A DNA stretch of 31,325 nt from a virus (Duplodnaviria > Caudoviricetes), in IMG/VR virus record IMGVR_UViG_3300005805_000300, positions 1 through 31,325 of that record; one strand, given 5' to 3'. How positions within the stretch are numbered: position 1 is the first letter of the stretch; each line of letters opens with the position of its first letter. Shown here piece by piece: positions 9,856-30,652 of this stretch. The translations under genes and the position numbers were made by a program. The notes beneath the pieces were generated by a model. It saw nothing but the letters and a program-made list of their open reading frames with translations, had not been told where the DNA came from and did not search any database.

Positions 9856-10416
9856 TTATCTATCTGGGTTTGGGGGAGACTCAAAAAATGATTTAGGTGA
9901 GTCATCTTTACCTGATGGAGCCTCAATTGGAACCCATGCTCGAGCGTAATTGTGTTCTTTTATTTTTCTGACCTTGATCAAACTGCTGTCAAGCATTAGC
10001 GATAATTCATCTGACTTCATGCATAGAAGGTCATCAAAATCTTGATTGGTATATCTTCCCGACCTTCTCATCTCCCTAATAATTCTTGATAATTTAGCTG
10101 CAACGACTACCGACTTGCCTCTATTGAGCTGTACGTGCATCATCATCGCTTCGATTTTGTCGCAATCGTGAAACACTACCGGGATCATCTCTCCATGTAT
10201 TTCTGATATTTTATCAATTTCCATAAATAGGTTGTATCTCTCGGAGCCATCAATTATTTCCCTCGTCTCCCGACGAACATGAAGTGGCTGTATAAAGCCG
10301 TACTGCATCAATGACGATGAAATAACGAAAAGTTCAGGTCGGAGAGTGTATGTTGACTTCCAGTCGGGGACAACTAATTGCCCTCGCTCAACTAATTCAA
10401 TTTTTATATTTTTCAT
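9856..10416 (-). CDS. ParB/Srx-domain protein, IbrB/YbdM-like
   Basis: SLMQYGFIQPLHV...EIIDGSERY...MMMHVQLNRGKS; translationally coupled to the PAPS-reductase-like gene. Confidence 0.8.
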   Translation of the reverse strand: MKNIKIELVERGQLVVPDWKSTYTLRPELFVISSSLMQYGFIQPLHVRRETREIIDGSERYNLFMEIDKISEIHGEMIPVVFHDCDKIEAMMMHVQLNRGKSVVVAAKLSRIIREMRRSGRYTNQDFDDLLCMKSDELSLMLDSSLIKVRKIKEHNYARAWVPIEAPSGKDDSPKSFFESPPNPDR

Positions 10417-11540
10417 AGTTCTATTTCTCTTTCAAGAATCCTGACAGCATTTGCTTTCGTTTTTGGGCCAACTGGCGTTGGTGAGTTCACATCTATTTCG
10501 TTCAGCATCAAGTTACGTATTAACCAGCTAATTGGGTAACCATAGGGGTCCTGAAGATGTTTTTTTCTAAATTTAGAGACATACACACGGGCTTCCATTT
10601 TTCTTCTATCGCCAACAAGATATTCGTCAATGAATTCAGAGGCGCCATCAAAACCCAGACCAGAATATCTTTCTATTAATTTTTCACTATCGAATTCTGG
10701 CCACCATCTTCGCTGCGCATCTATAAATGGAAAACATTCCCAAAGTCTGTCATAAAATTCAGGTTCAGTAGCTATGACGTCCCCTATGCGTCGAATTGCT
10801 GTTGCGTGAAGCGGTATGCCGACCCTAGTGTTGCTCCCGGTCGACATAGCTAGATCGTAATACTCACAATATTCTGCGTTATGCTCTTCAATGATAAATT
10901 TAAAAACATCATTAGTATTCCAGTCGTAAATTACTTTGGCAAATTTAAGTGGAATTCCAGCTTTTAGTTTGTATGGAGTGTTGATGTAGTTTTCGTGCAA
11001 TTTTTGCACAACAGAACGATATCTAACCATAGATTCACTTGCCCTTACCCCGGTCAAAAAAGCAACGTTCCCCTTTTTCCCTTGCATCGTGTAGTAGTCG
11101 GTTTGTTCTGGAAGTGATGTTTCATGAGATAAACCAAAATCATTTGCATTGATGGCAAATTGAGGCATATCTCTAAGCCACCTTTTTTGCTCTCCCCGCT
11201 GTTGACTCCAAAGAACAGTGGTTAGTCGATATCCAAGAACCCATATTTCTGCCGGGTATGGCAAACAATACCACTCCATATCCACCCAATCATAATTTCT
11301 GACTTTCTCTACATACTCAACAACGCTTGGGCTGACCATTTCTTCATCTCTAAATATTACTTTTACCGGGCCAAGATTTCGTTCTTCGTGAATTTCTTTC
11401 GCAAGATACAAAACTGCTGTTGAGTCTTTACCACCAGAAAATTGAACACAGACGGTATCAAACTGATCGTAGACGTGACGTATTCTTTGACGCGCAGCGT
11501 CAACACACGACATATCCAGAAACAGTCTCTGTCTTGTCAC
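10413..11540 (-). CDS. PAPS-reductase-family (PP-loop) protein, IbrA/YbdN-like
   Basis: PP-loop VQFSGGKDS, plus AARQRIRHVYD, FRDEE, TGVRASESMVRY, IYDWNTNDVF. Confidence 0.88.
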   Translation of the reverse strand: MTRQRLFLDMSCVDAARQRIRHVYDQFDTVCVQFSGGKDSTAVLYLAKEIHEERNLGPVKVIFRDEEMVSPSVVEYVEKVRNYDWVDMEWYCLPYPAEIWVLGYRLTTVLWSQQRGEQKRWLRDMPQFAINANDFGLSHETSLPEQTDYYTMQGKKGNVAFLTGVRASESMVRYRSVVQKLHENYINTPYKLKAGIPLKFAKVIYDWNTNDVFKFIIEEHNAEYCEYYDLAMSTGSNTRVGIPLHATAIRRIGDVIATEPEFYDRLWECFPFIDAQRRWWPEFDSEKLIERYSGLGFDGASEFIDEYLVGDRRKMEARVYVSKFRKKHLQDPYGYPISWLIRNLMLNEIDVNSPTPVGPKTKANAVRILEREIEL

Positions 11541-12364
11541 GGGGTGTGTTCTGAAATAAAAGATATTAATTTTTCCGCAACAGTATCGCCTTCAAGGCCT
11601 GCATCGGAACGTAACCATTTAATAAATGCGTACCATTCGGCTTGCTGTTGGGTGTTGTCAAAGACAATTGTGTACTGAACAACTGCTTGCGGAGCGGAGC
11701 GTGGAGAAACAGTTGTAGACCCCCTTACAACTGCATCATTTTGATCCATTTCTGGACGAATATTTATTCGTTGATTTCCCTCTTTGTCTTTGGTTATAGA
11801 CACCGTATTCATGTCTAGGGAGGTGTTCTTTGGTTTTTCGTCTTCCTCTTCTTCCTCTTCTTCCTCTTCTTCTTGATCTCTAATTATCACCGGGGGAACA
11901 TAGGAGCCAGAACTAACAACTTGATATTCATCTCTTATTGCAGATTGTTCAAGTTCAGCTAATTCAAACTCGTCCCAACCCAAACTGTCTATGAGTTCTG
12001 GATACTCCTCATGGATCTCCATAATAAATTCGCTAAGCATCTCTGGCTCTGTGTATCCAAGCTCCATGGTTCTGTTGTCAGCTATAGCAAACGCAATCGC
12101 TTTCTTGTTGTCTACGTCATAACTTACGGCGGCTATTTTGTCCCAACCAAGCTGCTTTGCCGCTTCAAGTTGATGATTTCCGGCAATAACCGTAGATGTT
12201 CCGTCGTCGTTAGGTCTTACGACTATTGGCTTGATTTGTCCAAACTCCTGATACGAAGCGATGATTGATTGCACATTGCCTTTTCTTGGATTCCCCTCTA
12301 GGGGGACAAGGGTGTTTACATCGACCGCAAGTTGTCTTAGTGATTCATGTATTTTGTCTGTCAT
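11537..12364 (-). CDS. ParB/Srx N-terminal domain protein with poly-Glu linker
   Basis: LVPLEGNPRKG...FGQIKPIVV...VIAGNHQLEAAKQLGW...AIADNRTMELG; internal QEEEEEEEEEEDE tract. Confidence 0.85.
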   Translation of the reverse strand: MTDKIHESLRQLAVDVNTLVPLEGNPRKGNVQSIIASYQEFGQIKPIVVRPNDDGTSTVIAGNHQLEAAKQLGWDKIAAVSYDVDNKKAIAFAIADNRTMELGYTEPEMLSEFIMEIHEEYPELIDSLGWDEFELAELEQSAIRDEYQVVSSGSYVPPVIIRDQEEEEEEEEEEDEKPKNTSLDMNTVSITKDKEGNQRINIRPEMDQNDAVVRGSTTVSPRSAPQAVVQYTIVFDNTQQQAEWYAFIKWLRSDAGLEGDTVAEKLISFISEHTP

Positions 12365-12366
12365 TT

Positions 12367-12702
12367 CTATACCTGCACCCTTACGTTTGCGTTAAGTGTC
12401 CGCATAGCATCTATCGATGTTCGTAGCGACAACAGAAGTTCGCGTTTTGTTTTTACTAAAGCTTCAGCACACTTGTGGTCGAAGTTTTGTTCATCCATTT
12501 TGTAATCGGCCCAAGCTTCTCGTTCTTTTATCGAACCTTTTGCTGATAGGTATTCTCGAGCCCAAGTAGATTTGTATAGCGCTTCTTTTTTTGCTGAGTC
12601 CATAGCTAGCGTTTCAAATTTTTCAGTTTCAATCTCAAGTCGGTCAAGAAGTCTGAGCAACTCTTGTTCTATGTCTACTTGACTAATTGGTGATGTTCTC
12701 AT
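12367..12702 (-). CDS. Helical hypothetical protein (possibly UvsY-like recombination mediator)
   Basis: 111 aa, coiled-coil character, overlaps the RuvC-like gene. Function inferred from size and context only. Confidence 0.45.
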   Translation of the reverse strand: MRTSPISQVDIEQELLRLLDRLEIETEKFETLAMDSAKKEALYKSTWAREYLSAKGSIKEREAWADYKMDEQNFDHKCAEALVKTKRELLLSLRTSIDAMRTLNANVRVQV

Positions 12703-13237
12703 TGTTTGATTCCTTTTTGTTTAGTGGTGTCCAATCTACTTTAGTTAGCGCATCAAGGTTTTGTGTAGGCCAATTATGTCTTTGTTTACCCAAATGAACA
12801 AGTCCCATTTCCTGCAATATCCAGGCGTCACATTTGTCGTCGGCCCCTGGATTGGACCAAATCTTTCCTGTCCTAGCAGATATCGCTGAAAGAACCTCAA
12901 GCTTTGAAGCATTGCCTTTACCCGTTGCAAATTTAGCCCTACATGTTGGTGGAACAATAACGCACGGAACCCCTATTTGCCAAAATAATAGTTTAACTAC
13001 CCCGCCCAATTCACCAATGGAAAAAGCTTGGCCACTACGGGACGCGAATGAGTAGCCCTCAAGAATTACTGCTTTCACATCAAGACTATTAATTAATCTT
13101 TCGATTTCTTGTTTTATTAAAAACAGCCTTTCCAATCCGGTCGCATCAAAAGACACTGTCCCGGTTTGTTCCCCGTACGAATACCCAGTAGAGGTTAACG
13201 AAAGATCGAGACCCAAAACGTCATTTATCACTGACAC
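12683..13237 (-). CDS. ruvC: RuvC-like Holliday junction resolvase
   Basis: VLGLDLSLTSTG, VILEGYS, IGELGGVVK, PPT..KFATGKGNASK, DDKCDA: the RuvC catalytic acidic residues. Confidence 0.88.
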   Translation of the reverse strand: MSVINDVLGLDLSLTSTGYSYGEQTGTVSFDATGLERLFLIKQEIERLINSLDVKAVILEGYSFASRSGQAFSIGELGGVVKLLFWQIGVPCVIVPPTCRAKFATGKGNASKLEVLSAISARTGKIWSNPGADDKCDAWILQEMGLVHLGKQRHNWPTQNLDALTKVDWTPLNKKESNNENITN

Positions 13238-13247
13238 ATACTAACCT

Positions 13248-13288
13248 AAAAGCAAAAACCCACCGAACATCTAGCTAGTCCGGTGGGT
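13248..13288 (-). terminator. Intrinsic terminator
   Basis: 11-bp stem ACCCACCGGAC/GUUCGGUGGGU running into a U-rich tail (UUUUGCUUUU). Confidence 0.8.
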
Positions 13289-13390
13289 GTTATTCAAAGC
13301 AGTGGTGGCTGCAATGAATACTTGCCGTGGTTAAACCACTCGATTCTTGGACCACCGCCTTTCTTCCGTGAAGGGTAGATATGGCTAGAC
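13248..13390 (-). ncRNA. Putative structured small RNA (~140 nt) with an extended complement to the 16S rRNA 3' end
   Basis: TGa-TAATCT -10 at 13405-13397; AGAAAGGCGGTGGTCCA at 13364-13348; internal stems; intrinsic terminator at 13288-13248. Confidence 0.6.
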
Positions 13391-13452
13391 GCAACAAGAT
13401 TATCATTTGAGTTAATAGGCAATAAGTGAAGAGCTTTTAAATAATATTATTT

Positions 13453-13502
13453 AAAAACAAACACGCAAAAGCCGAGTGAGTCCCCTCACCCGACTTTCGC
13501 GC
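13453..13502 (-). terminator. Intrinsic terminator hairpin
   Basis: GCGCGAAAGUCGGGUGAG-GGGA-CUCACUCGGCUUUUGCGU followed by GUUUGUUUUU. Confidence 0.8.
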
Positions 13503-13519
13503 CTATAACGGTCCTAAGT
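13453..13519 (-). ncRNA. Putative ~67-nt small RNA antisense to 23S rRNA helix 69
   Basis: -10 TAATCT at 13531-13526; single-stranded 5' leader ACUUAGGACCGUUAUAG; 18-bp stem with four G-U pairs and a GGGA (GNRA) loop; U-tract. Confidence 0.65.
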
Positions 13520-13577
13520 GCTACCAGATTACACCCGCAATAAATAGTGAAAGTGTTAACTATAAAACTATTAAAAA

Positions 13578-13922
13578 TTATTTTTCCCAACCATGTTTTG
13601 CAAGACCTAAATCAAAAGCGAGTTGTGGGTAATGACCAATCCTTACGTGACACGGCCTGCAGACAGCAAGAACATTTTCTTCATCAATAATTGAACCACC
13701 CTGTGAACGACGAACTATTTCGTGAACATCTCTGCTTAGGTGTTGGTTGTATGTTGCTTTTTTATCATGTGCGGCAAAAATTTTACAGGCCTGGCACATT
13801 GGTCTCTCTTTGAGTATTTTTTCTACGAATTTGCGACGCTCAACATATAGCTCTTCTGTTTTTTTGCTTCGTTTTTTTGGTAAGCCGCTTCGCTTTATTG
13901 GTTTATTTCTTCGAATCATCAC
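13578..13922 (-). CDS. HNH endonuclease
   Basis: CQAC...DVHEIVRRSQGGS...ENVLAVCRPCH: zinc-binding HNH motif with a basic N-terminus. Confidence 0.88.
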   Translation of the reverse strand: MMIRRNKPIKRSGLPKKRSKKTEELYVERRKFVEKILKERPMCQACKIFAAHDKKATYNQHLSRDVHEIVRRSQGGSIIDEENVLAVCRPCHVRIGHYPQLAFDLGLAKHGWEK

Positions 13923-20275: not shown

Positions 20276-23200
20276 ATGTCCACAGAAACATTTGAGTACA
20301 AATCCACGTCCATATCTGGCTCTCAACAAGTCAAGGGCGCAGTAAATTTGGATGAGGCTCAAGGTATTGTCGAATGTTTCGTCGCCGGTATTGGCAACAA
20401 AGACTCGGTTGGCGACGTTTGTGCGCCGGGAGCTTTCACAAAAAGCCTTCTTAGGCGCAAGCCTCGTGTGGTTTGGGGTCACAACTGGAATGACCCAATA
20501 GGTAAGGTCTTAGAAATTTATGAAGTTGGATCGACGGACCCACGCCTACCGCTAAAAATGAAGATGGCAGGAATTGGTGGTCTTTTCGCAAAAGTTCAAT
20601 TTAACTTAAATTCTGAAAAAGGCAAAGAAGCATTTGCTAATGTTGCCTTCTTTGGCGAAGAGCAAGAGTGGTCAATTGGCTATAAAACACTTAGAGCTCA
20701 ATTTGACCAGAAATCTCAAGCAAATATTCTTTATGAGGTTGAGTTGTACGAGGTAAGCCCTGTGCTTCACGGAGCAAACCAGCTCACCGGAACAATTTCG
20801 GTAAAAGCCGATGACTCCGCGTATGGTGGCGCTGTTGCATTGATGCCCGAAAGTGAGGACGATAACGGATTTGAGGAAATGGAAAAAGAATTGAGCAGAC
20901 TGCTCAACGCTAAGGTTTCCATAAATGCAATAGAGGGAGACAGCGTAATATTTACCCGACAGGAAGCTGTCGGCGCCAAGAAATATCGATGTGGATTCAT
21001 GAAGAACCACGGAAGATATATGTTCGGAATACCAGAAATGATTTCCACCCCGCAGAGTATGCGACCTATGTCTCCGATGCCGGTTGTATCAGGAAGACCG
21101 ATGCCGCCAAATGAGCCGCAGAGAATTGTAAGACCACAACAAATGCCCTCAATTCCTGTTGCCGTAAAACCAAGCAGCGACGGCGTAATGATGATTCCTC
21201 TTCCAGCGATTCGCTACGATTCTTCATCTAAACCACAAATAGATAAAAATAATCTCGATCAAGAAGAATCAGATTTGCGCGATGCGCTTTTAAAAATCGT
21301 AAAACGTCATGGAAAACTAGATGAAGATGGAGACGGAATCTGGGCGGGCTACTATCCACCAGAAAAAAATCCAGTCGCGTCAATCGGAGTTAAGTGCGCC
21401 AATTGTGTTTTCTATAAAGGCGGTTCTAGTTGTAAAATTCTTGCGCTCCCCGTGCACCCGGAAGGGAAATGCAGATTTGCGGTAATCCCAAACGGCGTTG
21501 TTGTTGGCAGCAGCTCCAAGGAGCTCGAAGACCTCGCAAGCGAAGCAGAGGACTCGATTATCGAAACACTTGAAATGAAATATCCAGGAGAATTTATTCT
21601 TGGTGTACTGAGAAACACTGTCGGTAGAAGAAAAAAGAGAAGACAGAAGTACAAGAATCTTTCCGAGTTCGGCGACGCAGATGACACCGGTGAAAAGGCC
21701 TACCTAATACCGGTAGAGCCAGATTTTGCGTTCAGTGTAAAGACAGCGCTGGATCCTATATTTGATTATCACAGAGCAGAAACATTTGTTGACAAAGAGG
21801 GCATAGTGATATCTTCCGGAGTGACGGAAGAATTGATTGATGCACTCGATACCGCCTTCCACAACATAAAAAAAAAATTCCAAGAACATAATGTAGAAGT
21901 CAAAGCGCTTGGTTACAGAATCGGTCGCTCACTTGCTTCAAGGGCGATAGATAGACCAAATATCGGCGGGAAAAAACGTGGTCGTGGATTTGGTATGCCG
22001 GAAGGCGACCTCAACCCAATGACCAGAGTTGACAAAAACAGAGATGGAACACTGTTTGACAACATACCAGGATGGGAACAACCAGACCCGACACCGGATG
22101 GACCTGGTTCAATCAATAACGCAAAACTTTCTTCTACTCAAAAAAGAGACATTGACAAAATTTCTGGAGAAGCTAATAAGATAAAACCACAAGACAGCGA
22201 AATAATAAAAAGTCGCAAACCAAAGTACGACGTCAACGAACTGGACGACATTCTTGGGGAAGATAAAAAGAAGCCATCTAAAAAACCTGTAGCAAAAGCA
22301 ACTCCGATTAAAAAAGAAAAAGCCAAACGCGGCGAGTACGACTTCTCTAAGGGTCCTAAAAAAGATAAGCCAATCAAAACCCCATCTCTCGCATCAGGTG
22401 AAGAAAAAGACAAGAAACCAAAGACTCCTTCGCGCAAGAAACCAAAGATGACCGATGAGGAAATCTACAAAAAAAGAATAACGACGAAGGCATCACTTCA
22501 GGAGCTAGCCGATGAGCTCGGCATCTCAAGAATGGAAGTGAGAAAGCGCGAACAGCGCCACATGCGCAAGTTGCGCAATGATAAACAAAGTCCTTCTCTT
22601 TCGTCTGGCGAAAAGAATGAGTGGGCGACGGCGCGTGGTTACGAACCAGACAGATTTGATCTCCGCGAGGCCGTAGAACAAATAGGTAGAGGGAACATAA
22701 TGGCCATTTCTGGTGGTCGTGTTGAAAGAAGAGGGAATGAAATGATTCTCCCTTCGACAAAAGACCAACAAGTCGTAATCGGATACAACGCAGTTCCTGA
22801 CCTTTACTACGTTCGAGCGGAACAAAAAGTTAATACTGGCAAAAACAAGGGTAAGAATAAAATTCTTGCTCAATGGGACGACGTCTATGCCGACGAGTTG
22901 GGTGAACTTGCGTATCAAGCAAGCCTAAAGCCGGCATTGTTAAACAGCGAAAACAAAGAGTATTGGAAGCTTGGAAAAGGCAATCAATTCACTGACAAAC
23001 TTATTGATAGGAGAAGCGGAAAACTCGTAGATGACGAAGTTTCAGAAAAACCTTCTTCTACTCCCTCAAAAGAAGAAACCCCATCTCTTTCTTCTGGTGG
23101 GAGAGGACGTGATTACTACAAATACGACATAGATACGAGCGACAACGGGAACGGCCTGCTTGATCAAATTCATGACGCTCTTGAAGAAAACCCACTACTC

Positions 23201-26200
23201 AAAGATGACATTACGGCCGACATAGCGGACATGCTTGGTGGAGACGGAATAGTTGAAGCAAATGGATTCGATACACGAAAAGCATTCAATCTCGTAACCG
23301 GAAGTGATGATGATTTCCAGGGCTACTTAGACGTCGTTGACGATGCAATGGATGCACTTAAAAATGGTTCACTTGCAAAGCATAAAGCGACGGTTCGTGA
23401 CGCCAATACAACTCTTGATTCGCTCAAATCCGGAAGCGATGAAGCCGGAAAACTTGAAGCATTGAGAGACAGGTCGTATGAGTGGATTGGTGATATTAAT
23501 AAATATTCACGAATATCCACAATTAAAGATAAAAAGAACATCGAAGCAAATGATGTTGCAGCACGGATGGTTTCAAAAGAGCAAGACGCTCTCTGGAATG
23601 CTCGTTCCGCTATAACAGAAAAATACATAGAAGATGTCATCTCTGCAAAGAAAGAATCAAAGCGAAGGGTTCCAATTGATGATGTGGATACAGAAAAAAT
23701 TCCAGATTACGAATTAGCTCTTTCTTCTGGAAGCGTATTTAAAAACAAGCCAGCATCAAAAACATTAGATAGCAAATCGGATGGATTATCTCTCTCGTCT
23801 GGGGAAAATAAAAAAATCTATGACGAAATAGGTAAATCAATTCTCGAGGCACTTATCGAGATGCAAAAAAATCCACAATCCAGATACTGGGATGTTCCGT
23901 GGAGAACCCCTACTCTTTATGCAAAAAACCCAACAAAGGGTCGCTTATATCAGGGCATGAATGCATTGCTTCTCGCAAACTCTCATAGACAAAATCAATA
24001 CAGAGGAAATTTTTGGGCTGGAAAATCTCAGTGGGCAAAATTTGGCGGAACTGTAGAAGATGGAAAGAGCGGAGTAAATATTCTCGTTCCAAGAGAGACC
24101 CCAACTGGCAAAACTTTCATTGTACAAACTGTCTACAACCTGGACGACATTGAAGGCTTGCCAGATTCTTACGTCAAAAAATTATTAGATGTGGGCAAAG
24201 AGCGTCTTGACCCAGCAACCAAAATCAAAGACGCAGAGTCTGTCGTTGACGAAATTAAACCAGAGATTAGGTTCGGTGGAGATTCTGCGTATTACTCAAT
24301 CACGAATGATCACATTCAGATGCCCCCATACGAAATGTTTAAATCCCCTGAGCAATATTACTCAACACTTTTGCACGAGCTAACGCACTGGACTGGCGGA
24401 AAATCCCGTCTTGCAAGAAAGCAAGTAGGTCTACAAAAAGACGAAGAAGCATATTCATTTGAGGAATTAATTGCCGAAATGGGTTCGTCATTCCTTCTTG
24501 CAGCACTTGGTATCACGCCAGAAGTAAGACAAGACCACGTTGTTTATATTGAAAGTTGGATTTCAAATCTCACAAAGGACCCAAGTGCATTTATTAGGGC
24601 AATGAACCAAGCACAACAAGCTGCTGATTGGGTTATGGACAGATCACCCACATTGAGAAGACTTGCCGGCGTACCAGATAGCGAAAGAAAAGGCAAACCT
24701 GATGCAACCAAGGAAGTTGCGGAAGCCGCAACCGAATCTGTTGATGCAGTAAAAGATTCGACTCCATCTCTATCTTCTGGTGCACAAGTCGGTGTACGGA
24801 AAGTAAAAGAGCTTCAATACTTTGGCGACGAAGATCAATATGGCTCTGGAGTTGTTGATAGAGATTCACGGGGACGTATTCTTGATGCGGCTGGCGCTCT
24901 TTCTCTTTCTAGCGGCGCGAAACCGATTAAAAGTGTAGATGGGAAAATAACAGTACCAAGACCTAGCGACAATGTTCCATACAGAGAAAAATACAAATTT
25001 CTCGCTAATGAATTTGAACCAACAGAGCAACAAAAAGCATCAATGGATGTACTGCAACACATGCTCAAAGAAAAGATAAATGGCATCATCGCTATTGGTG
25101 CTGGGGCTGGTTCGGGCAAAACAACAAACTTAAAGCAAAATGCGCGTGCCGTTGCCGCAATTTTCCCTGGCAAACAAATTTACTATACCGTATTCAATAG
25201 GGGAAATGCTAAAGACGGTAACCGAGTAATGCCAAGGAATACCGGCGTAGCAACAAGCAATCAAATTGCATACTGGTCGCTAGTTCTTGGAACCGGTGAC
25301 AAATTTTACGGAACAGGCACTGCAAAAAAAATACAACTTGGAGTCGGACCGAGGGAAAAAGTATATCTACGGGGTGCAAAGAAAAATACGGTAAAAGAAT
25401 ATACAGATTTTGAAGGGAACAAGCTTCAATTTACAGGTGTAATACCCGGATATACAGATTTGGGTTATACGAGCTACGATTCGGAACCAAATATCATAGA
25501 AAGACTTGAGAAGCTTGGGCTTCTTAGTGACGCCGACGAGCTTCTCGGCGCTGATTATTCTCTTGCAGAAATGTTGAAGAAGGCTCTTATGAGATTTGCA
25601 GAGAGCGAAGACCCCAAATTGTCCGCGAAACATTTTTTATTGCGCGATGTGGAAATGATCTCGGCCTTACTGGATGGCAAACCAGTACCTACTGAAGAAA
25701 CGATACCTAAAGAAGTTGTAGAAATCGCTCAAAAGTTATGGGATGAGACGGTAGACCCGAACAGCAATGTTTTAATTCCTCAGGAATATCAAATAAAAAT
25801 GTGGGCCCTCACCAAGCCAGACCTAAGAACAGATAAGGGACTTATTGGACATAGACCAAACGAAACAATTTTTGACAGAATAAAACTTGGTACGGTCGAA
25901 GATTTAGATTCCGGGAAAATCAAAATTGGAAACATAATTGAATTTACCGTGCCAGAAACCGGCGAAAAAGTTGCCGCAGTTATCCGCAAACTTAATCCGC
26001 CATCACAAAAAGAAACAAAAAAAGGCGAGCTGACCGGAAAAAGACAAGTAACTGGTTCTGTTTCTATTGTTTCAGTAACTGCCAACAATCCGCTAGAAGT
26101 GTTTATGTTTGATGAAGCTCAAGACGTGAACCCAGTTATGGCAAAAGTGCTAGCTGATAACGCTGCGAATTTACCAATCATAATGGTCGGTGATTCGCGT

Positions 26201-29200
26201 CAAGCCATTTACGGATTTAGAGGGGCCATGGACGCCCTAGATAAAGCAAATGCGACATTTAGGCTCCCCTTAACACGTTCATTTAGGTATGGAAGGCTAC
26301 CGGCATACCTAGCGAATGTTGTGTTGATGCAAGGAAATATTGATGACTTAAATTTCCATAGGGAAAATGAGACTTTAGACAGACACACATTTCATCACGT
26401 AGTTGGCGAAGCTCAAAATGTTGTAATCAATGCACTGAAAATTACTGGTCCAGATGGTAAAAAACTACTCCCCAAGGAAGAACTCGACAAAAAACTCAAA
26501 TTTATAGAAGTGAAATACAAACTCAAGGGACGCGCAGTCAGCTTTGATGGGAAAAGTGAAAAAGAAATAAAAGAACTTGTTGACAAGCTATATGAAGAGC
26601 ACGTTCCTAAAGCGAATGGTCAAATCGTGGAAAACATGACCAATCCTCAAGCCGTCTTAACATCAACAAATGCTGGCGTAATGGAAGAGGCTCTCAATGT
26701 AGTTGAAGGGGGAATACTTAAGCATCAAATTGCATATCTCGACCTTCTTGGTATTGAGGACATAACAGACGAAATAGAATTAGCTAATAGATTGAAAAAA
26801 ATTTCTGAAATATACACATTGGACGGACTTGAAATAAATCTTCTTGATATCGCGGCAAACGACGGAAAAGATGCGATGCTAAAAACCATCAATGAATTAA
26901 GAGAGGAGCACGCTCCTGGTGGTGCTGATGGAAAAATTCCAGCTATAGGAATCCCGGCTGACACTCACGAAAAACTCTATGACTTCTACAATCAACTAGA
27001 TTGGATTATGGGGGATCTTGATAACAAATTTGGCGTTCAGGGGCGGCCAAAAGCATCGAAATTATTGAAAGATGTCTGGAGATTCGACAAAAAGAAAAAT
27101 AGATATCCAACAAAAGAGGAAATGGTCAGGAAAATAGAGAGAATGGTTCAAGGCGGATCACAGGAGCTTAAAACCTGGTATAGGCTTGCGTACCCTCCAA
27201 TCGGAAAAGGCATACCAAGAGGGGCAAGATTCTTTAAAGATTTACTAAGACCAAACGGACAGGTATATAAAGACCTGAACGGGAATGAACAAAGATATCA
27301 GGGACTAAGGCCAATGCGCGAGGGGATTGAGCTCCCCAACATGGAGTCCGGTAAGGACCACATTACGGCAGATCTTATAAAGGAAACAGCGAAAGAACCA
27401 TTAGGCGAAAGCAAGTCTGGAAGACGCAGAAAAATTTCATGGATAATACCCAAGAAAGATGAAGGTGATTCGTCTGGTGAGGTATTCGTAAAACTAGAAC
27501 TTGACGAAAATGGCAAGTCAACCGGAGGCGTGATTATTGCGGGGAATGGCGCTCATGGTGGAAAGTATAAGTTTAGAAAATGGAATAACAAGAAAAAAGA
27601 ATGGGACCCGATACAAAGCGGGCAGCCCGACAAGAAGGGGTTCGATTACTACGAAGACTTAGCAAAGGTTGCGAAAAAACTGAAAGCTGAATACCCAGAC
27701 GCGGTAATTGAATTTAAGCAGGGCCTCGTAAAACAGGACGGCAAAGCTTTAACATTCCCCCCAGACACCCCCGATGATTTTAAGCCAAAACTAAATCCGA
27801 AAACAGGAAATCCTGACTCCTCCGTCGAAAGAGCATCCTTGCCTGGGTGGGTCGTGAGGGGGAGGAACCCGGAAGAGACCGCACTTATTGCCAACGAATT
27901 TGGTAACAGGGTCAGAAAATTAGCGGCCGAAGGAAATACCGACGTTGACGTTATGACTGTTCATATTGCTAAAGGTAGAGAATGGAAGAGAGTAAGGCTT
28001 TCTGACGACTTCCGAGACCCAGAATCCCTGGTCCCAACTCTCCCACCGGAAGTTTTAGAAAACCTTAAACCAAAAGAGAGACTCCGGGTTCTCAGAGAAC
28101 TCGAGATGATGAAACGAGAAGAGCACAACAAGGTTTATATAGCAATAACTAGAGCACAGGAGCAAATTGATCTTGGTGTTGCTATAACAAAATATTACTT
28201 CTTAGATGAGATACCCAATACTGCTTTAACTGCTGATATCCAAGAGATCAGGAAGAGGATAGAAGATCTAGATAAAGAAATAAGCAAACTCCAAAAAAAA
28301 CCCAACAGCGATACAGATCCAGCAATCAAAAAAGAAATAAATAGACTCAAAAAAGAAAAAATCGAACAGAATAAAATCCTTAATACGTCTCGAGATATGC
28401 TTCAAGCTCAAAAAGTTACTGCAGCTAAAGCAAAAATTGTCGAGAACCCAGACGGCATATACGACGACCTTCAGGCCCCAGAAGGCTTCATTACCCCTTA
28501 TTTGGCCGATACGGAAGAGGCCAGAGCAAAACGCAAAAAGCGTCAAGAAGAATTAGATCAGTCGGTTAAGAGGTACTTTGAGTCACAGCGTCAAAAAGAA
28601 AAACAACAAGCAACCCCGGATGACGATGATGAAGCGATGGTCGAAGACGACTCCGGCGGGCTTGATACTGGTGAGCCAAACTTTGTAGACATATCTGGAC
28701 CAGAAGATGACAGTGGAATAAGTAGCGATGATCAAGACGACGACGGAGACGTTCAATCGCTATCTCTTTCGTCTGGAGCTAAAAAGAAAACAAACAGAAG
28801 AAATAGACGCCTCCCCTACAGTCAACAAGATAGACAGAATCTCGCTGATGGAAATATTATCCGTTCGAAAAAAATTCCTAAAAAACGCAAACCAGGACCA
28901 TCAACTCAAGAATTTGATGATTTAGCGCTTGCTTCCGGAGCGAAAACACCAGAGGGGAGATACGCAAGAAGACTGCGAGCAATAAGCCTCTCTAGCGGAA
29001 GTGATGATATTGGTGCAGGAGCAAAAACTCGACAAATTAACGGCAAGAGATTTGCTGCAACAATTTCTAGGCCTCGAGATCTTGCCGCCATAAGAGTGGA
29101 TGGTGACCCAAACAAAAATGACGAAGTGAAAAACAAACTCGAATATGCAATGAAATTTTGGCGTGGAGTGCGTGAACGCGGCATCGCCCTGGATCCGGAC

Positions 29201-30652
29201 GATGTCTCAGCCGAAAGAAAAGACGTTGAAATCAAAAATTCAATCTCTTCTATTTCAAAAAGAATGTCCACGAGACCAAAAGTTAAAATTGGTAAAGTTT
29301 CATCTAATCAAATAAAAGATGACGTCAACCCTGATGAGTGGTTCGTTCCTGTTTCTAAATTAAAAGACTCGATAAGAATACCAACAGAATTTTCCAATAT
29401 TCCGGCCGACCCCGACTCTCCGGACGGTAGAAAAATTGCTCGCTGGACGCAGACACGCCCACTTTCCAATGACGAACTAGGGAAAATGCTTGCCCTAAGC
29501 AAGACAGACATAAAAAAATTATCTGATGATGATTCTGGCATCACTCACGACTCTGTTCGATTTCTGTTGGCTGAAATAGGTAAACAGAAAGGATTTGAAG
29601 CTTGGAGACTATTTGCTCCGACCTCTTTGAAAGAAGAAGGCGTACAAGAAATGTCGCCCGCAGATAAATTTGTCGCAAATCTAGAAAGAGCCAACATGCG
29701 TGACAGATTCATAATCGAAGCATTTGGCAAAGATGCCTTCCCCTACTGGATAGATAAGGAAGAAAATACTGTTATTGGTCAGAAAGAATATTCAACCCTT
29801 GGCGAAGTCAGTGAAATGGGCAAATTTAGGTCCACTGGAATATTCAGCAAAAAACGCGGAGCATCAGAATTCGGCTCAACCGCCGAAGAAATGCTCCTTG
29901 AGGAAGCGGTGTTTGGCGGCGATGATGGTCCGGGCGACTTCGTGAAGGAAGCAATTATAAATTCCGTATCAGCACCATCAGGTAAAACATCTAGAGAACA
30001 ATTTGATATCAGCCAACTTCTTCAGGCATTAAAAATAAACGAATCAGAAGACTGGTATAAGGAGTTGCGTAAAAGAATGATGAAGGCATTTTCCACAGAC
30101 GATGTTGGTCTTACATCCAAGGAAGTGGCCCGACAGTGGGAGGCCGGTGGGGTTCCTACGACATACATTAATGAAATGATCAGAACAGGCTTGATTCCTG
30201 ATGCTAAATCGGTTTGGAAAAAAGATGGTGTCGGGGAAAAACTAGACAGCGAATTGGCTGCTTCAAAGCACTCTGTCTACGAAGCCCTTTTTGAGTTTAC
30301 GCAAGCAAAACACGCCGCAGATAAAGCCAAAAACACTAGACGAAACAGAGATTACATTCTTGGTTCTACCGATTTTACTGTCTCGCATAAAGGGGTGGCC
30401 GCCAGGAAGGGGGCAACATTCTCAAAGAAAACCGGAGATGAAAGAAGATTTAGCCAAAGCGAACTACAGGATGTTGTAAATCGTTTTAATGAAATATTTG
30501 GAACCAATTACAAAATAGACGACATTTTCAGTGCAGAGCAATTACGCAACGCAACAAAAAGGCTCCGCGAAGAAGGTAAAACCCTATACGGCGAAGAACC
30601 TTTAGAGCTGGGTCAACGAGTTGTTCTTAAGAAAGATAAGAATAATAAATAA
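20276..30652 (+). CDS. 3458-aa polyvalent protein: HK97-type prohead protease + HiPIP-like Cys motif + sigma4-like HTH + ArdC-N/MPTase + UvrD-like SF1 helicase + unknown domains
   Basis: Protease: KDSVGDVCAPGAF, VWGHNW, WSIGY, LYEVSPVLHGAN. ArdC: NPTKGRLYQGMNALLL, LLHELTHWTG, YSFEELIAEMGS. Helicase: AGAGSGKTT, DEAQD, VGDSRQAIYGFRGA, LTRSFRYG, TVHIAKGREW, VYIAITRA. Confidence 0.92.
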   Translation: MSTETFEYKSTSISGSQQVKGAVNLDEAQGIVECFVAGIGNKDSVGDVCAPGAFTKSLLRRKPRVVWGHNWNDPIGKVLEIYEVGSTDPRLPLKMKMAGIGGLFAKVQFNLNSEKGKEAFANVAFFGEEQEWSIGYKTLRAQFDQKSQANILYEVELYEVSPVLHGANQLTGTISVKADDSAYGGAVALMPESEDDNGFEEMEKELSRLLNAKVSINAIEGDSVIFTRQEAVGAKKYRCGFMKNHGRYMFGIPEMISTPQSMRPMSPMPVVSGRPMPPNEPQRIVRPQQMPSIPVAVKPSSDGVMMIPLPAIRYDSSSKPQIDKNNLDQEESDLRDALLKIVKRHGKLDEDGDGIWAGYYPPEKNPVASIGVKCANCVFYKGGSSCKILALPVHPEGKCRFAVIPNGVVVGSSSKELEDLASEAEDSIIETLEMKYPGEFILGVLRNTVGRRKKRRQKYKNLSEFGDADDTGEKAYLIPVEPDFAFSVKTALDPIFDYHRAETFVDKEGIVISSGVTEELIDALDTAFHNIKKKFQEHNVEVKALGYRIGRSLASRAIDRPNIGGKKRGRGFGMPEGDLNPMTRVDKNRDGTLFDNIPGWEQPDPTPDGPGSINNAKLSSTQKRDIDKISGEANKIKPQDSEIIKSRKPKYDVNELDDILGEDKKKPSKKPVAKATPIKKEKAKRGEYDFSKGPKKDKPIKTPSLASGEEKDKKPKTPSRKKPKMTDEEIYKKRITTKASLQELADELGISRMEVRKREQRHMRKLRNDKQSPSLSSGEKNEWATARGYEPDRFDLREAVEQIGRGNIMAISGGRVERRGNEMILPSTKDQQVVIGYNAVPDLYYVRAEQKVNTGKNKGKNKILAQWDDVYADELGELAYQASLKPALLNSENKEYWKLGKGNQFTDKLIDRRSGKLVDDEVSEKPSSTPSKEETPSLSSGGRGRDYYKYDIDTSDNGNGLLDQIHDALEENPLLKDDITADIADMLGGDGIVEANGFDTRKAFNLVTGSDDDFQGYLDVVDDAMDALKNGSLAKHKATVRDANTTLDSLKSGSDEAGKLEALRDRSYEWIGDINKYSRISTIKDKKNIEANDVAARMVSKEQDALWNARSAITEKYIEDVISAKKESKRRVPIDDVDTEKIPDYELALSSGSVFKNKPASKTLDSKSDGLSLSSGENKKIYDEIGKSILEALIEMQKNPQSRYWDVPWRTPTLYAKNPTKGRLYQGMNALLLANSHRQNQYRGNFWAGKSQWAKFGGTVEDGKSGVNILVPRETPTGKTFIVQTVYNLDDIEGLPDSYVKKLLDVGKERLDPATKIKDAESVVDEIKPEIRFGGDSAYYSITNDHIQMPPYEMFKSPEQYYSTLLHELTHWTGGKSRLARKQVGLQKDEEAYSFEELIAEMGSSFLLAALGITPEVRQDHVVYIESWISNLTKDPSAFIRAMNQAQQAADWVMDRSPTLRRLAGVPDSERKGKPDATKEVAEAATESVDAVKDSTPSLSSGAQVGVRKVKELQYFGDEDQYGSGVVDRDSRGRILDAAGALSLSSGAKPIKSVDGKITVPRPSDNVPYREKYKFLANEFEPTEQQKASMDVLQHMLKEKINGIIAIGAGAGSGKTTNLKQNARAVAAIFPGKQIYYTVFNRGNAKDGNRVMPRNTGVATSNQIAYWSLVLGTGDKFYGTGTAKKIQLGVGPREKVYLRGAKKNTVKEYTDFEGNKLQFTGVIPGYTDLGYTSYDSEPNIIERLEKLGLLSDADELLGADYSLAEMLKKALMRFAESEDPKLSAKHFLLRDVEMISALLDGKPVPTEETIPKEVVEIAQKLWDETVDPNSNVLIPQEYQIKMWALTKPDLRTDKGLIGHRPNETIFDRIKLGTVEDLDSGKIKIGNIIEFTVPETGEKVAAVIRKLNPPSQKETKKGELTGKRQVTGSVSIVSVTANNPLEVFMFDEAQDVNPVMAKVLADNAANLPIIMVGDSRQAIYGFRGAMDALDKANATFRLPLTRSFRYGRLPAYLANVVLMQGNIDDLNFHRENETLDRHTFHHVVGEAQNVVINALKITGPDGKKLLPKEELDKKLKFIEVKYKLKGRAVSFDGKSEKEIKELVDKLYEEHVPKANGQIVENMTNPQAVLTSTNAGVMEEALNVVEGGILKHQIAYLDLLGIEDITDEIELANRLKKISEIYTLDGLEINLLDIAANDGKDAMLKTINELREEHAPGGADGKIPAIGIPADTHEKLYDFYNQLDWIMGDLDNKFGVQGRPKASKLLKDVWRFDKKKNRYPTKEEMVRKIERMVQGGSQELKTWYRLAYPPIGKGIPRGARFFKDLLRPNGQVYKDLNGNEQRYQGLRPMREGIELPNMESGKDHITADLIKETAKEPLGESKSGRRRKISWIIPKKDEGDSSGEVFVKLELDENGKSTGGVIIAGNGAHGGKYKFRKWNNKKKEWDPIQSGQPDKKGFDYYEDLAKVAKKLKAEYPDAVIEFKQGLVKQDGKALTFPPDTPDDFKPKLNPKTGNPDSSVERASLPGWVVRGRNPEETALIANEFGNRVRKLAAEGNTDVDVMTVHIAKGREWKRVRLSDDFRDPESLVPTLPPEVLENLKPKERLRVLRELEMMKREEHNKVYIAITRAQEQIDLGVAITKYYFLDEIPNTALTADIQEIRKRIEDLDKEISKLQKKPNSDTDPAIKKEINRLKKEKIEQNKILNTSRDMLQAQKVTAAKAKIVENPDGIYDDLQAPEGFITPYLADTEEARAKRKKRQEELDQSVKRYFESQRQKEKQQATPDDDDEAMVEDDSGGLDTGEPNFVDISGPEDDSGISSDDQDDDGDVQSLSLSSGAKKKTNRRNRRLPYSQQDRQNLADGNIIRSKKIPKKRKPGPSTQEFDDLALASGAKTPEGRYARRLRAISLSSGSDDIGAGAKTRQINGKRFAATISRPRDLAAIRVDGDPNKNDEVKNKLEYAMKFWRGVRERGIALDPDDVSAERKDVEIKNSISSISKRMSTRPKVKIGKVSSNQIKDDVNPDEWFVPVSKLKDSIRIPTEFSNIPADPDSPDGRKIARWTQTRPLSNDELGKMLALSKTDIKKLSDDDSGITHDSVRFLLAEIGKQKGFEAWRLFAPTSLKEEGVQEMSPADKFVANLERANMRDRFIIEAFGKDAFPYWIDKEENTVIGQKEYSTLGEVSEMGKFRSTGIFSKKRGASEFGSTAEEMLLEEAVFGGDDGPGDFVKEAIINSVSAPSGKTSREQFDISQLLQALKINESEDWYKELRKRMMKAFSTDDVGLTSKEVARQWEAGGVPTTYINEMIRTGLIPDAKSVWKKDGVGEKLDSELAASKHSVYEALFEFTQAKHAADKAKNTRRNRDYILGSTDFTVSHKGVAARKGATFSKKTGDERRFSQSELQDVVNRFNEIFGTNYKIDDIFSAEQLRNATKRLREEGKTLYGEEPLELGQRVVLKKDKNNK
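22382..28999 (+). repeat. Ten dispersed peptide-level repeats [PLI][SA]L[SA]SG
   Basis: Copies start at 22382, 22592, 23081, 23714, 23786, 24764, 24899, 28760, 28922 and 28982, with varied synonymous codons. Confidence 0.9.

Follow-up and report, generated by a model that had tools for sequence, protein, structure and literature searches.

We describe a predicted phage RNA gene of about 140 bases, real and conserved among related uncultured phages, that contains an extended complement of the 3' tail of 16S ribosomal RNA. Sequence comparison makes it very probable that the RNA binds the 30S subunit through this tail. As to its function, we tentatively favour a mimic of messenger RNA that lacks a start codon, which would hold host 30S subunits idle and act, on balance, as a decoy on Shine-Dalgarno (SD)-led initiation.

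Locus, family and the complement of the 16S tail

The window, as we call the whole 31-kb virus record analysed (31,325 nucleotides), comes from a contractile-tailed phage and carries terminase, portal, sheath and tube genes. An HNH gene and a RuvC-like gene flank the 340-nt gap that contains the RNA gene, and all three are on the minus strand. Its features, and those of a neighbouring RNA gene (unit 1), are given here in the direction of transcription.

13578..13922, minus: HNH endonuclease gene, upstream neighbour (PHROG 15522, E 1e-10)
13526..13559, minus: putative promoter of unit 1, with the identical 22-nt layout (21-22 nt in 26 of 44 distinct promoters)
13503..13518, minus: 16-nt perfect antisense of unit 1 to 23S rRNA 1914-1929 (helix 69; -29.2 kcal/mol), no other exact anti-rRNA match of the window being longer
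13463..13502, minus: long hairpin/terminator of unit 1 (terminator scan; z -4.4)
13425..13430, minus: -35-like hexamer of the putative promoter; it precedes the -10 box by 22 nt instead of 17 (of 54 distinct promoters, 26 have 21-22 nt and none has 15-20 nt)
13397..13405, minus: extended -10 box TG-n-TAATCT (a TAnnnT box before the 5' element in all 54 distinct promoters listed, a few box choices being ambiguous; TG extension in 28 of 54)
13383..13390, minus: predicted 5' end, which pairs with the terminator loop (-13.1 kcal/mol) and can likewise pair with the 3' strand of 16S helix 45 (-13.2 kcal/mol)
13348..13364, minus: the tract, complementary over an extended stretch to the 16S 3' tail (from ~1529 to the end in E. 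coli numbering), broken opposite U1537, from match, energy and conservation
13344..13346, minus: GAA triplet at SD-to-P-site distance, replaced by ATG, GTG or TTG in branch B (sequence comparison)
13322..13343, minus: module of UCNAG, hairpin (13339-13327) and GGCAA (94% of cells paired; two-sided changes in three of four pairs; 14 such cells against 2.9 in shuffled alignments)
13296..13306, minus: fold-back (anti-tract) strand (duplex -16.9 against -9.5 kcal/mol shuffled, p 0.006; sequence not conserved)
13248..13288, minus: terminator hairpin and U-rich tail (93% of cells paired; two-sided changes in seven of ten pairs)
12683..13243, minus: RuvC-like resolvase gene, downstream neighbour (PHROG 159, E 1e-33), its start immediately preceded by a -10 box of its own

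The -10 box, tract, fold-back strand and terminator lie where the initial annotation had placed them, as do the 5' GUCUAGC (13390-13384) and the hairpin.

Loci for comparison were gathered through the RuvC gene (80 kept of 573), the HNH gene (36), unit 1 (119) and patterns of the tract. A loose tract pattern returned 120 loci from viral contigs, mostly by chance, and members were retained only if they also had the hairpin and terminator. A covariance model of the core located the RNA unit in 45 of the 80 RuvC-anchored loci of related phages, many of which had themselves built the model, and found one copy each in the window and in five of six long phage records (G003 being covered to 153 of 159 kb, and G209 65% complete); it found none in 200 kb of five Actinomycetota genomes. 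The letters that are invariant in 37 representatives fall in the tract, the UC-N-AG motif and the base of the terminator. The search of Rfam proposed in the initial annotation was run against release 15, and no family matched in the window by gathering threshold or by E-value, the best E between 13150 and 13650 being 2.4. A collection of 50,697 cultured-phage records gave only two short chance matches, and a look-up of sequencing runs listed no RNA run containing the sequence. Literature searches, for which subscription papers were outside the scope, returned no description of the tract RNA; it was not found in the accessible part of Weinberg 2017, and the sole motif listed before a RuvC gene in the accessible part of Fremin 2023 (PMC10690425) belongs to phages of Betaproteobacteria. 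The tract RNA may be among the candidate motifs of the latter study.

A WhiB gene is present in all ten related phage records tested (5/5 and 5/5), the window itself not reaching such a gene, and a search of 14 control genomes matched in Corynebacterium only; an actinobacterial host is therefore likely. A search for homologues of WhiB pointed to no particular host.

Pairing at 16 of 17 positions with the 16S 3' end, as reported in the initial annotation, is borne out: the 17-nt tract forms 15 Watson-Crick pairs, one G-U pair and one mismatch. The tail assumed there is of the Actinomycetota type, since its ending is shared by all 29 of the 16S 3' ends retrieved (from the best-scoring 30 loci in 201 genomes of the phylum of a Streptomyces genome, one unpublished genome excluded) and not by the shorter tail of E. 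coli. Taken alone the match is only moderately unusual, and 8 of 100 shuffled windows reach a match within three mismatches, the tract having two. The tract is also the window's best partner of the actinobacterial tail, at -26.0 kcal/mol compared with -18.7 for the next site, a gap of 7 kcal/mol; it is the best site in five of five carrier records, in one of them by only 0.6 kcal/mol. Energy alone is no proof, because the best chance site in a non-carrier reaches -21.9 kcal/mol; the proof lies in conservation. In all 60 sequences of the first set the predicted duplex with the tail is worth -19.8 to -24.4 kcal/mol, compared with -12.2 for a plain SD. In 68 sequences (L066 excluded), 28 of the 29 departures from the perfect complement within the 5' arm, the arm not fixed by our search patterns, are A-to-G changes opposite U that keep the pairing, A-to-G being the commonest type of change in any case and the relatives not being independent. 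A tract G opposite C is never altered in the same 68 sequences. The single A of the canonical SD core occurs in none of them, and one to three other letters stand in its place; four branch-C sequences have a G-U pair at this position. The 16S duplex is thus broken at the SD core throughout, and not maximised.

Promoter, fold and start codon

The unit is probably transcribed from its own promoter, given the elements listed above. The TG-a-TAATCT box of the initial annotation is present at 13405-13397, and the hexamer is identical to that of unit 1 at 13531-13526. The two RNA promoters (13559-13526 and 13430-13397, minus strand) form a shared special class that is atypical of the rest of the genome: the 22-nt layout is not enriched genome-wide, and putative leaderless genes have 17 nt.

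The fold proposed in the initial annotation stood in part. Its hairpin at 13339-13327 is conserved and covaries, as does the strong terminator, which a simple terminator scan missed because its loop has 9 nt; when the alignment was slid as a control, 22-86% of the hairpin and terminator cells were paired and the two-sided changes were lost. The MFE structure lacks the second small hairpin (GCAA...UUGC), whose 3' half is not conserved. Pairing of the 5' end with the terminator loop, also proposed there, spans 5 bp or more in 37 of the 44 branch-A sequences; one clade is compensatory, and several wobbles occur. The same 5' letters fit the loop and 16S helix 45 equally well. The unit as a whole folds with a z of -3.2, largely due to the terminator, without which it is -1.8.

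The stem thought to sequester the tract, and to make it switchable, is less secure. The 11-bp stem does appear in the MFE structure; it makes up only about 0.12 of the ensemble, in which the tract is some 70% paired, more with the 5' side than with the fold-back strand. An anti-tract strand is present in 11 of 22 branch-A representatives, with different letters each time, and in 0 of 13 from branch B, the relatives again not being independent; support for the long stem and for a switch is thus confined to the window's branch. The tract therefore appears to be loosely covered, and no single fixed switch is demonstrated; opening it costs 7-16 kcal/mol in the ensemble calculation (about 8 for the window). 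Branch-B RNAs (L027, L039, L062, L221 and others) have a palindrome at the start and another in the terminator loop, unlike branch A, and these may be dimerisation signals.

The branches were defined by sorting 73 distinct sequences by terminator type and not by start codon. The triplet that precedes UCNAG is separated from the SD core by 5-9 nt in every sequence (in L066 it is AGG, at 6 nt); the spacing at which an SD functions is given as 4-9 nt in the accessible text of PMC4611024. All 24 branch-B sequences have a start at this triplet (ATG 17, TTG 4, GTG 3), these being the three triplets that IF3 accepts (same source and extent), and it opens a frame of 13-19 codons, exactly 14 in 18 of the 24, compared with 3 of 48 in other frames. 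The encoded peptides open with M-S-S-G; because the frames diverge after codon 5 and third positions in the common stretch barely vary, selection appears to act on translation of about 14 codons and not on the peptide. Variation confined to ATG, TTG and GTG indicates that the family is read by initiating ribosomes, and branch B is very likely translated.

Branch A, to which the window belongs, has a start triplet in 0 of 44 sequences, with one stop at the site. Its frames run from 0 to 48 codons, and 9 of the 44 fall within 13-19 codons as against 24 of 24 in branch B. Branch C has no start (0 of 4), and one further sequence has ATG and 15 codons. In a RuvC tree of 66 rows, branch B falls in one supported clade, of which two start-less copies are also members. 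The 28 rows of the window's clade have either start-less copies only or no copy; on this unrooted tree the change may be read as gain or as loss of the start codon. The initial annotation was right that no properly spaced start of a substantial reading frame follows the tract; the GTG-GTT-TAA that it named as the best candidate stands 15 nt away from the SD core, and relatives do not conserve its GTG. It had taken conservation of a small reading frame in place of the structure and tract as evidence against its reading. The sister branch does keep start and frame, alongside both tract and structure. Divergence of the frames after codon 5, together with the start-less state of branch A, argues that the peptide is dispensable, and since branch A retains the tract, spacing and hairpin without a start, what is kept would be engagement with the ribosome.

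The neighbouring anti-23S unit and candidate modes of action

Unit 1 RNA starts with its 16-nt anti-helix-69 stretch, and the target is the same in the six actinobacterial operons compared and in the one used for scanning. In relatives the match is extended along the rRNA (23 nt in one) or slid toward helix 70; variants of the window's copy (13518-13463, minus strand) occur in L029, L036, L038, L040 and L345, and short forms of 11-13 nt in L039, L050 and L053. Unit 1 lies within 400 nt of the tract RNA in 70 of 119 loci, in either order. In G003 (L525:3957-6518) four genes are inserted between the two, which stand about 2.7 kb apart. Among the rows of the RuvC tree, 26 have both RNAs and 19 have neither within the DNA covered; against paired action, the tract RNA occurs alone in 9 of the 66 and unit 1 alone in 12. 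Pairing between the two RNAs does not exceed chance (p 0.30), and exact matches of at least 14 nt brought out no additional anti-rRNA RNA in six phage records. The unit 1 pattern gave 68 matches in bacterial and archaeal genomes, from unrelated taxa and at about the number expected by chance from an arithmetic estimate.

We propose that the tract RNA, transcribed from its own promoter, would rest in a loosely folded state, the roughly 8 kcal/mol needed to open the tract being repaid by about 26 gained in the 16S duplex. It would then occupy the mRNA channel and place GAA in the P site; IF3 would reject this triplet and leave a dead-end, untranslated 30S complex, and subunits so held would be kept from starting on SD-led messages. 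Unit 1 may do the matching job on helix 69 of the 50S subunit, and the pair could throttle or park host ribosomes at some stage of infection. Natural precedent for the binding step is found in rreB, an RNA with a 17-nt SD that co-sediments with 30S subunits according to the accessible text of PMC5711450, and antisense PNAs directed at helix 69 block translation, as reported in the part of a review available to us (PMC12828698).

The phage's own genes bear on how such a decoy could act. SD starts make up 27/75, 18/49, 16/44 and 20/58 (34-37%) of the scorable genes in four carrier phages and 4/31 (13%) in a fifth, compared with 15/46 (33%) in the non-carrier G210 and a background of 3-7%; these counts cover unambiguous starts only, with one non-carrier and a host control (10-13 genes per genome) that is too small. 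The signature of leaderless genes, counted in the same way, is not clearly higher in carriers (12-26%) than in the non-carrier (13%), and a model in which the RNA biases translation toward leaderless messages was rejected, the carriers being no different from this one non-carrier. In the window, the genes for the tail tube and sheath are SD-led. A lasting SD blockade would consequently harm the phage, and a blockade could only be an early, a partial or a reversible one; the conserved break at the SD core would permit reversibility. The decoy or sponge of the initial annotation thus gains from conservation, wobble-preserving changes and the host match, all of which support the predicted binding to the tail, and loses its simplest form to the phage's own use of SDs. 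Small lake Actinobacteria hold few ribosomes. Overproduction of rreB left growth unslowed, for which its authors invoke an excess of ribosomes (PMC5711450, accessible text).

Two readings, each of which we regard as unlikely, are the serious rivals to the start-less mimic. The RNA might shield the ribosome by covering the single-stranded 16S tail against host ribonucleases, whether MazF-type toxins in abortive infection or those of starvation decay, and so spare ribosomes for SD-led late genes, with unit 1 guarding the 50S interface. The phage does need SD-led translation, and the conserved break would keep a cover reversible; yet a tail under cover is just as unable to read an SD. Related MazF toxins have their 23S site in helix 70, which lies some 10 nt beyond the usual reach of unit 1. 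In the accessible text on actinobacterial MazF (PMC12274833) the enzyme is single-strand specific and cuts this tail at C^ACCU, a site within the tract's invariant arm, and a MazF-type cut at U^CCUU in the same tail is reported in the part available of a preprint (bioRxiv 10.64898/2026.10.23.761202); the latter site stands opposite the conserved break, and neither paper, as far as its accessible text extends, ties the toxins to phage defence. Alternatively the tract might merely load and stabilise the RNA, in the style of a STAB-SD or rreB, while the UCNAG-hairpin-GGCAA module would work at the A site or entry channel or for a protein, or turnover of the RNA might report free ribosomes. Conservation of the module equals that of the tract, and whatever the frame, the nucleotides of its flanks are retained; transcripts are stabilised by an SD that is not translated (review, accessible part, PMC7509114), and the stability of rreB depends on its start codon (PMC5711450, likewise). 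For such anchoring a plain SD of 6-8 nt would be enough, no partner gene travels with the tract RNA (in L066 unrelated genes come after it), and the helix 69 neighbour suggests the ribosome as the target.

The remaining explanations are less probable still. That both RNAs pair with the nascent 16S 3' end and helix 69, stall assembly of immature subunits and divert resources to the phage we consider improbable. Both targets are more exposed before assembly, the invariant arm of the tract presumably covers the Era-binding letters of the 16S tail, and the 5' end could invade helix 45 at -13.2 kcal/mol; helix 45 itself is however worth -18.2 kcal/mol, and start-codon selection in branch B and the SD-like spacing suggest mature, initiating subunits. 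More improbable again is translation of the window's copy from a non-canonical codon, as a minigene or type I toxin mRNA, one of the readings of the initial annotation. Branch B is indeed translated in all likelihood, a single letter separates 25 of the 44 branch-A triplets from AUG, and extended SDs help weak starts in S. aureus (PMC13009471, accessible part); against this stand the lack of any canonical start in branch A, the window's GAA, three letters from AUG, and frame lengths that vary as described above. No hydrophobic toxin-like peptide is encoded, and a simple scan for opposite-strand promoters showed no antisense antitoxin, unit 1 pairing with the RNA no better than chance. A role as cis leader of RuvC, or resemblance by chance, can hardly be credited and is largely refuted by conservation and context: the RNA usually directly precedes RuvC, but its covarying terminator ends it, RuvC has a -10 box of its own, the order of the units swaps in branch B, and in L066 and L067 the unit lies 2.8 kb from RuvC.

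For the pair of RNAs we put forward, with more doubt than the start-less mimic itself, a protein-free phage device that clamps both halves of the ribosome, combining the start-less mimic on the 16S tail with a seed antisense on helix 69. The two would be co-transcribed from the special promoter class and would amount to natural anti-association or hibernation factors, the tract RNA possibly being a mini-mRNA turned into a non-coding ligand by loss of its start codon.

Related systems and genomic surroundings

Among known RNAs, the small mRNAs rreB and rreR of Alphaproteobacteria come closest; the comparison draws on the accessible text of PMC5711450. They too are stand-alone transcripts of about 150 nt with 16-17 nt of complementarity to the 16S 3' end, partly folded over, and their reading frames of 14-18 codons resemble the 13-19 of branch B (18 of 24 with exactly 14). 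They are chromosomal, with one on a plasmid, whereas the tract RNA is phage-borne; their duplex is perfect and takes in the canonical SD as well as the start codon's first base, and that of the phage RNA is broken at the SD core; their peptide is conserved, unlike that of the phage family, in which it is not conserved across frames and the window's branch lacks a start; and the phage RNA has an anti-23S RNA as its neighbour. We claim no sequence relationship. A perfect complement of at least 16 nt including a canonical SD, as in rre-type RNAs, is absent here (15 Watson-Crick pairs, one G-U and one mismatch), and a start with a short reading frame is found in 24 of 24 branch-B sequences and in neither the window nor the 44 sequences of branch A.

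The STAB-SD of cry3A (review, accessible part, PMC7509114) is likewise an SD without a start codon that binds 30S subunits, and the window's RNA shares such an SD-like tract. The STAB-SD is a cis element that protects a long mRNA, while the phage RNA is free, has a tract twice as long and has no downstream message; it is not the 5' UTR of a stabilised coding mRNA, given the covarying terminator within 60 nt and the next gene's own -10 box. The tract RNA would work like rreB in branch B and like a free STAB-SD in branch A, and belongs to neither class. Nor does it belong to the type I toxins, having no conserved short hydrophobic reading frame (no start, 0-48 codons). An RNA-guided nuclease locus (IscB/HEARO-like) was also considered and rejected for want of linkage, since the HNH and RuvC genes abut without any RNA between them in related phages and 19 of the 66 tree rows have neither unit within the DNA covered.

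Synthetic antisense PNAs (review, accessible part, PMC12828698) address the same two rRNA targets, the 16S mRNA-binding site and 23S helix 69; they are man-made, and no natural counterpart was found in the literature searches. The anti-SD-cutting MazF toxins of mycobacteria (PMC12274833; bioRxiv 10.64898/2026.10.23.761202; both in accessible part) attack the same 16S tail, also in Actinobacteria, and shut translation down. They are proteins that cut irreversibly, whereas the phage RNA is predicted to pair reversibly.

If the RNA does act on rRNA, the consequences would be considerable. Both rRNA sites are already proven vulnerable to synthetic antisense, and because the targets are nearly universal and the RNAs short, the proposal can be tested directly with purified subunits. 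The known targets of small RNAs from bacteria and phages are mRNAs and proteins; a naturally occurring one that acts in trans on rRNA would, if true, be a new viral route of translation control, and a pair that clamps both subunits a new kind of device. The branches with and without a start codon also offer a natural experiment on the role of rreB-like extended-SD RNAs, which their discoverers left open.

Several further features of the locus and window were observed. The RuvC gene has a TAnnnT box 6 nt before its GTG (13243-13229, minus strand), which is also present in relatives without both RNAs, and the gene is likely leaderless. A ParB-like gene lies beside a PAPS-reductase-like gene at 9856-12364 (minus strand), a pair that we take to be a DNA-modification cluster. 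On the plus strand, 20276-30652 encodes a polyprotein of 3458 aa with prohead protease (31-174), sigma-70 region 4 (737-768), ArdC/zincin (1179-1443) and UvrD helicase (1938-2630) domains. Between these domains lie ten copies of an (S/A)-L-(S/A)-S-G motif, likely self-processing sites that free head-packed proteins; the unusual -35 box may be recognised by the sigma region 4 piece.
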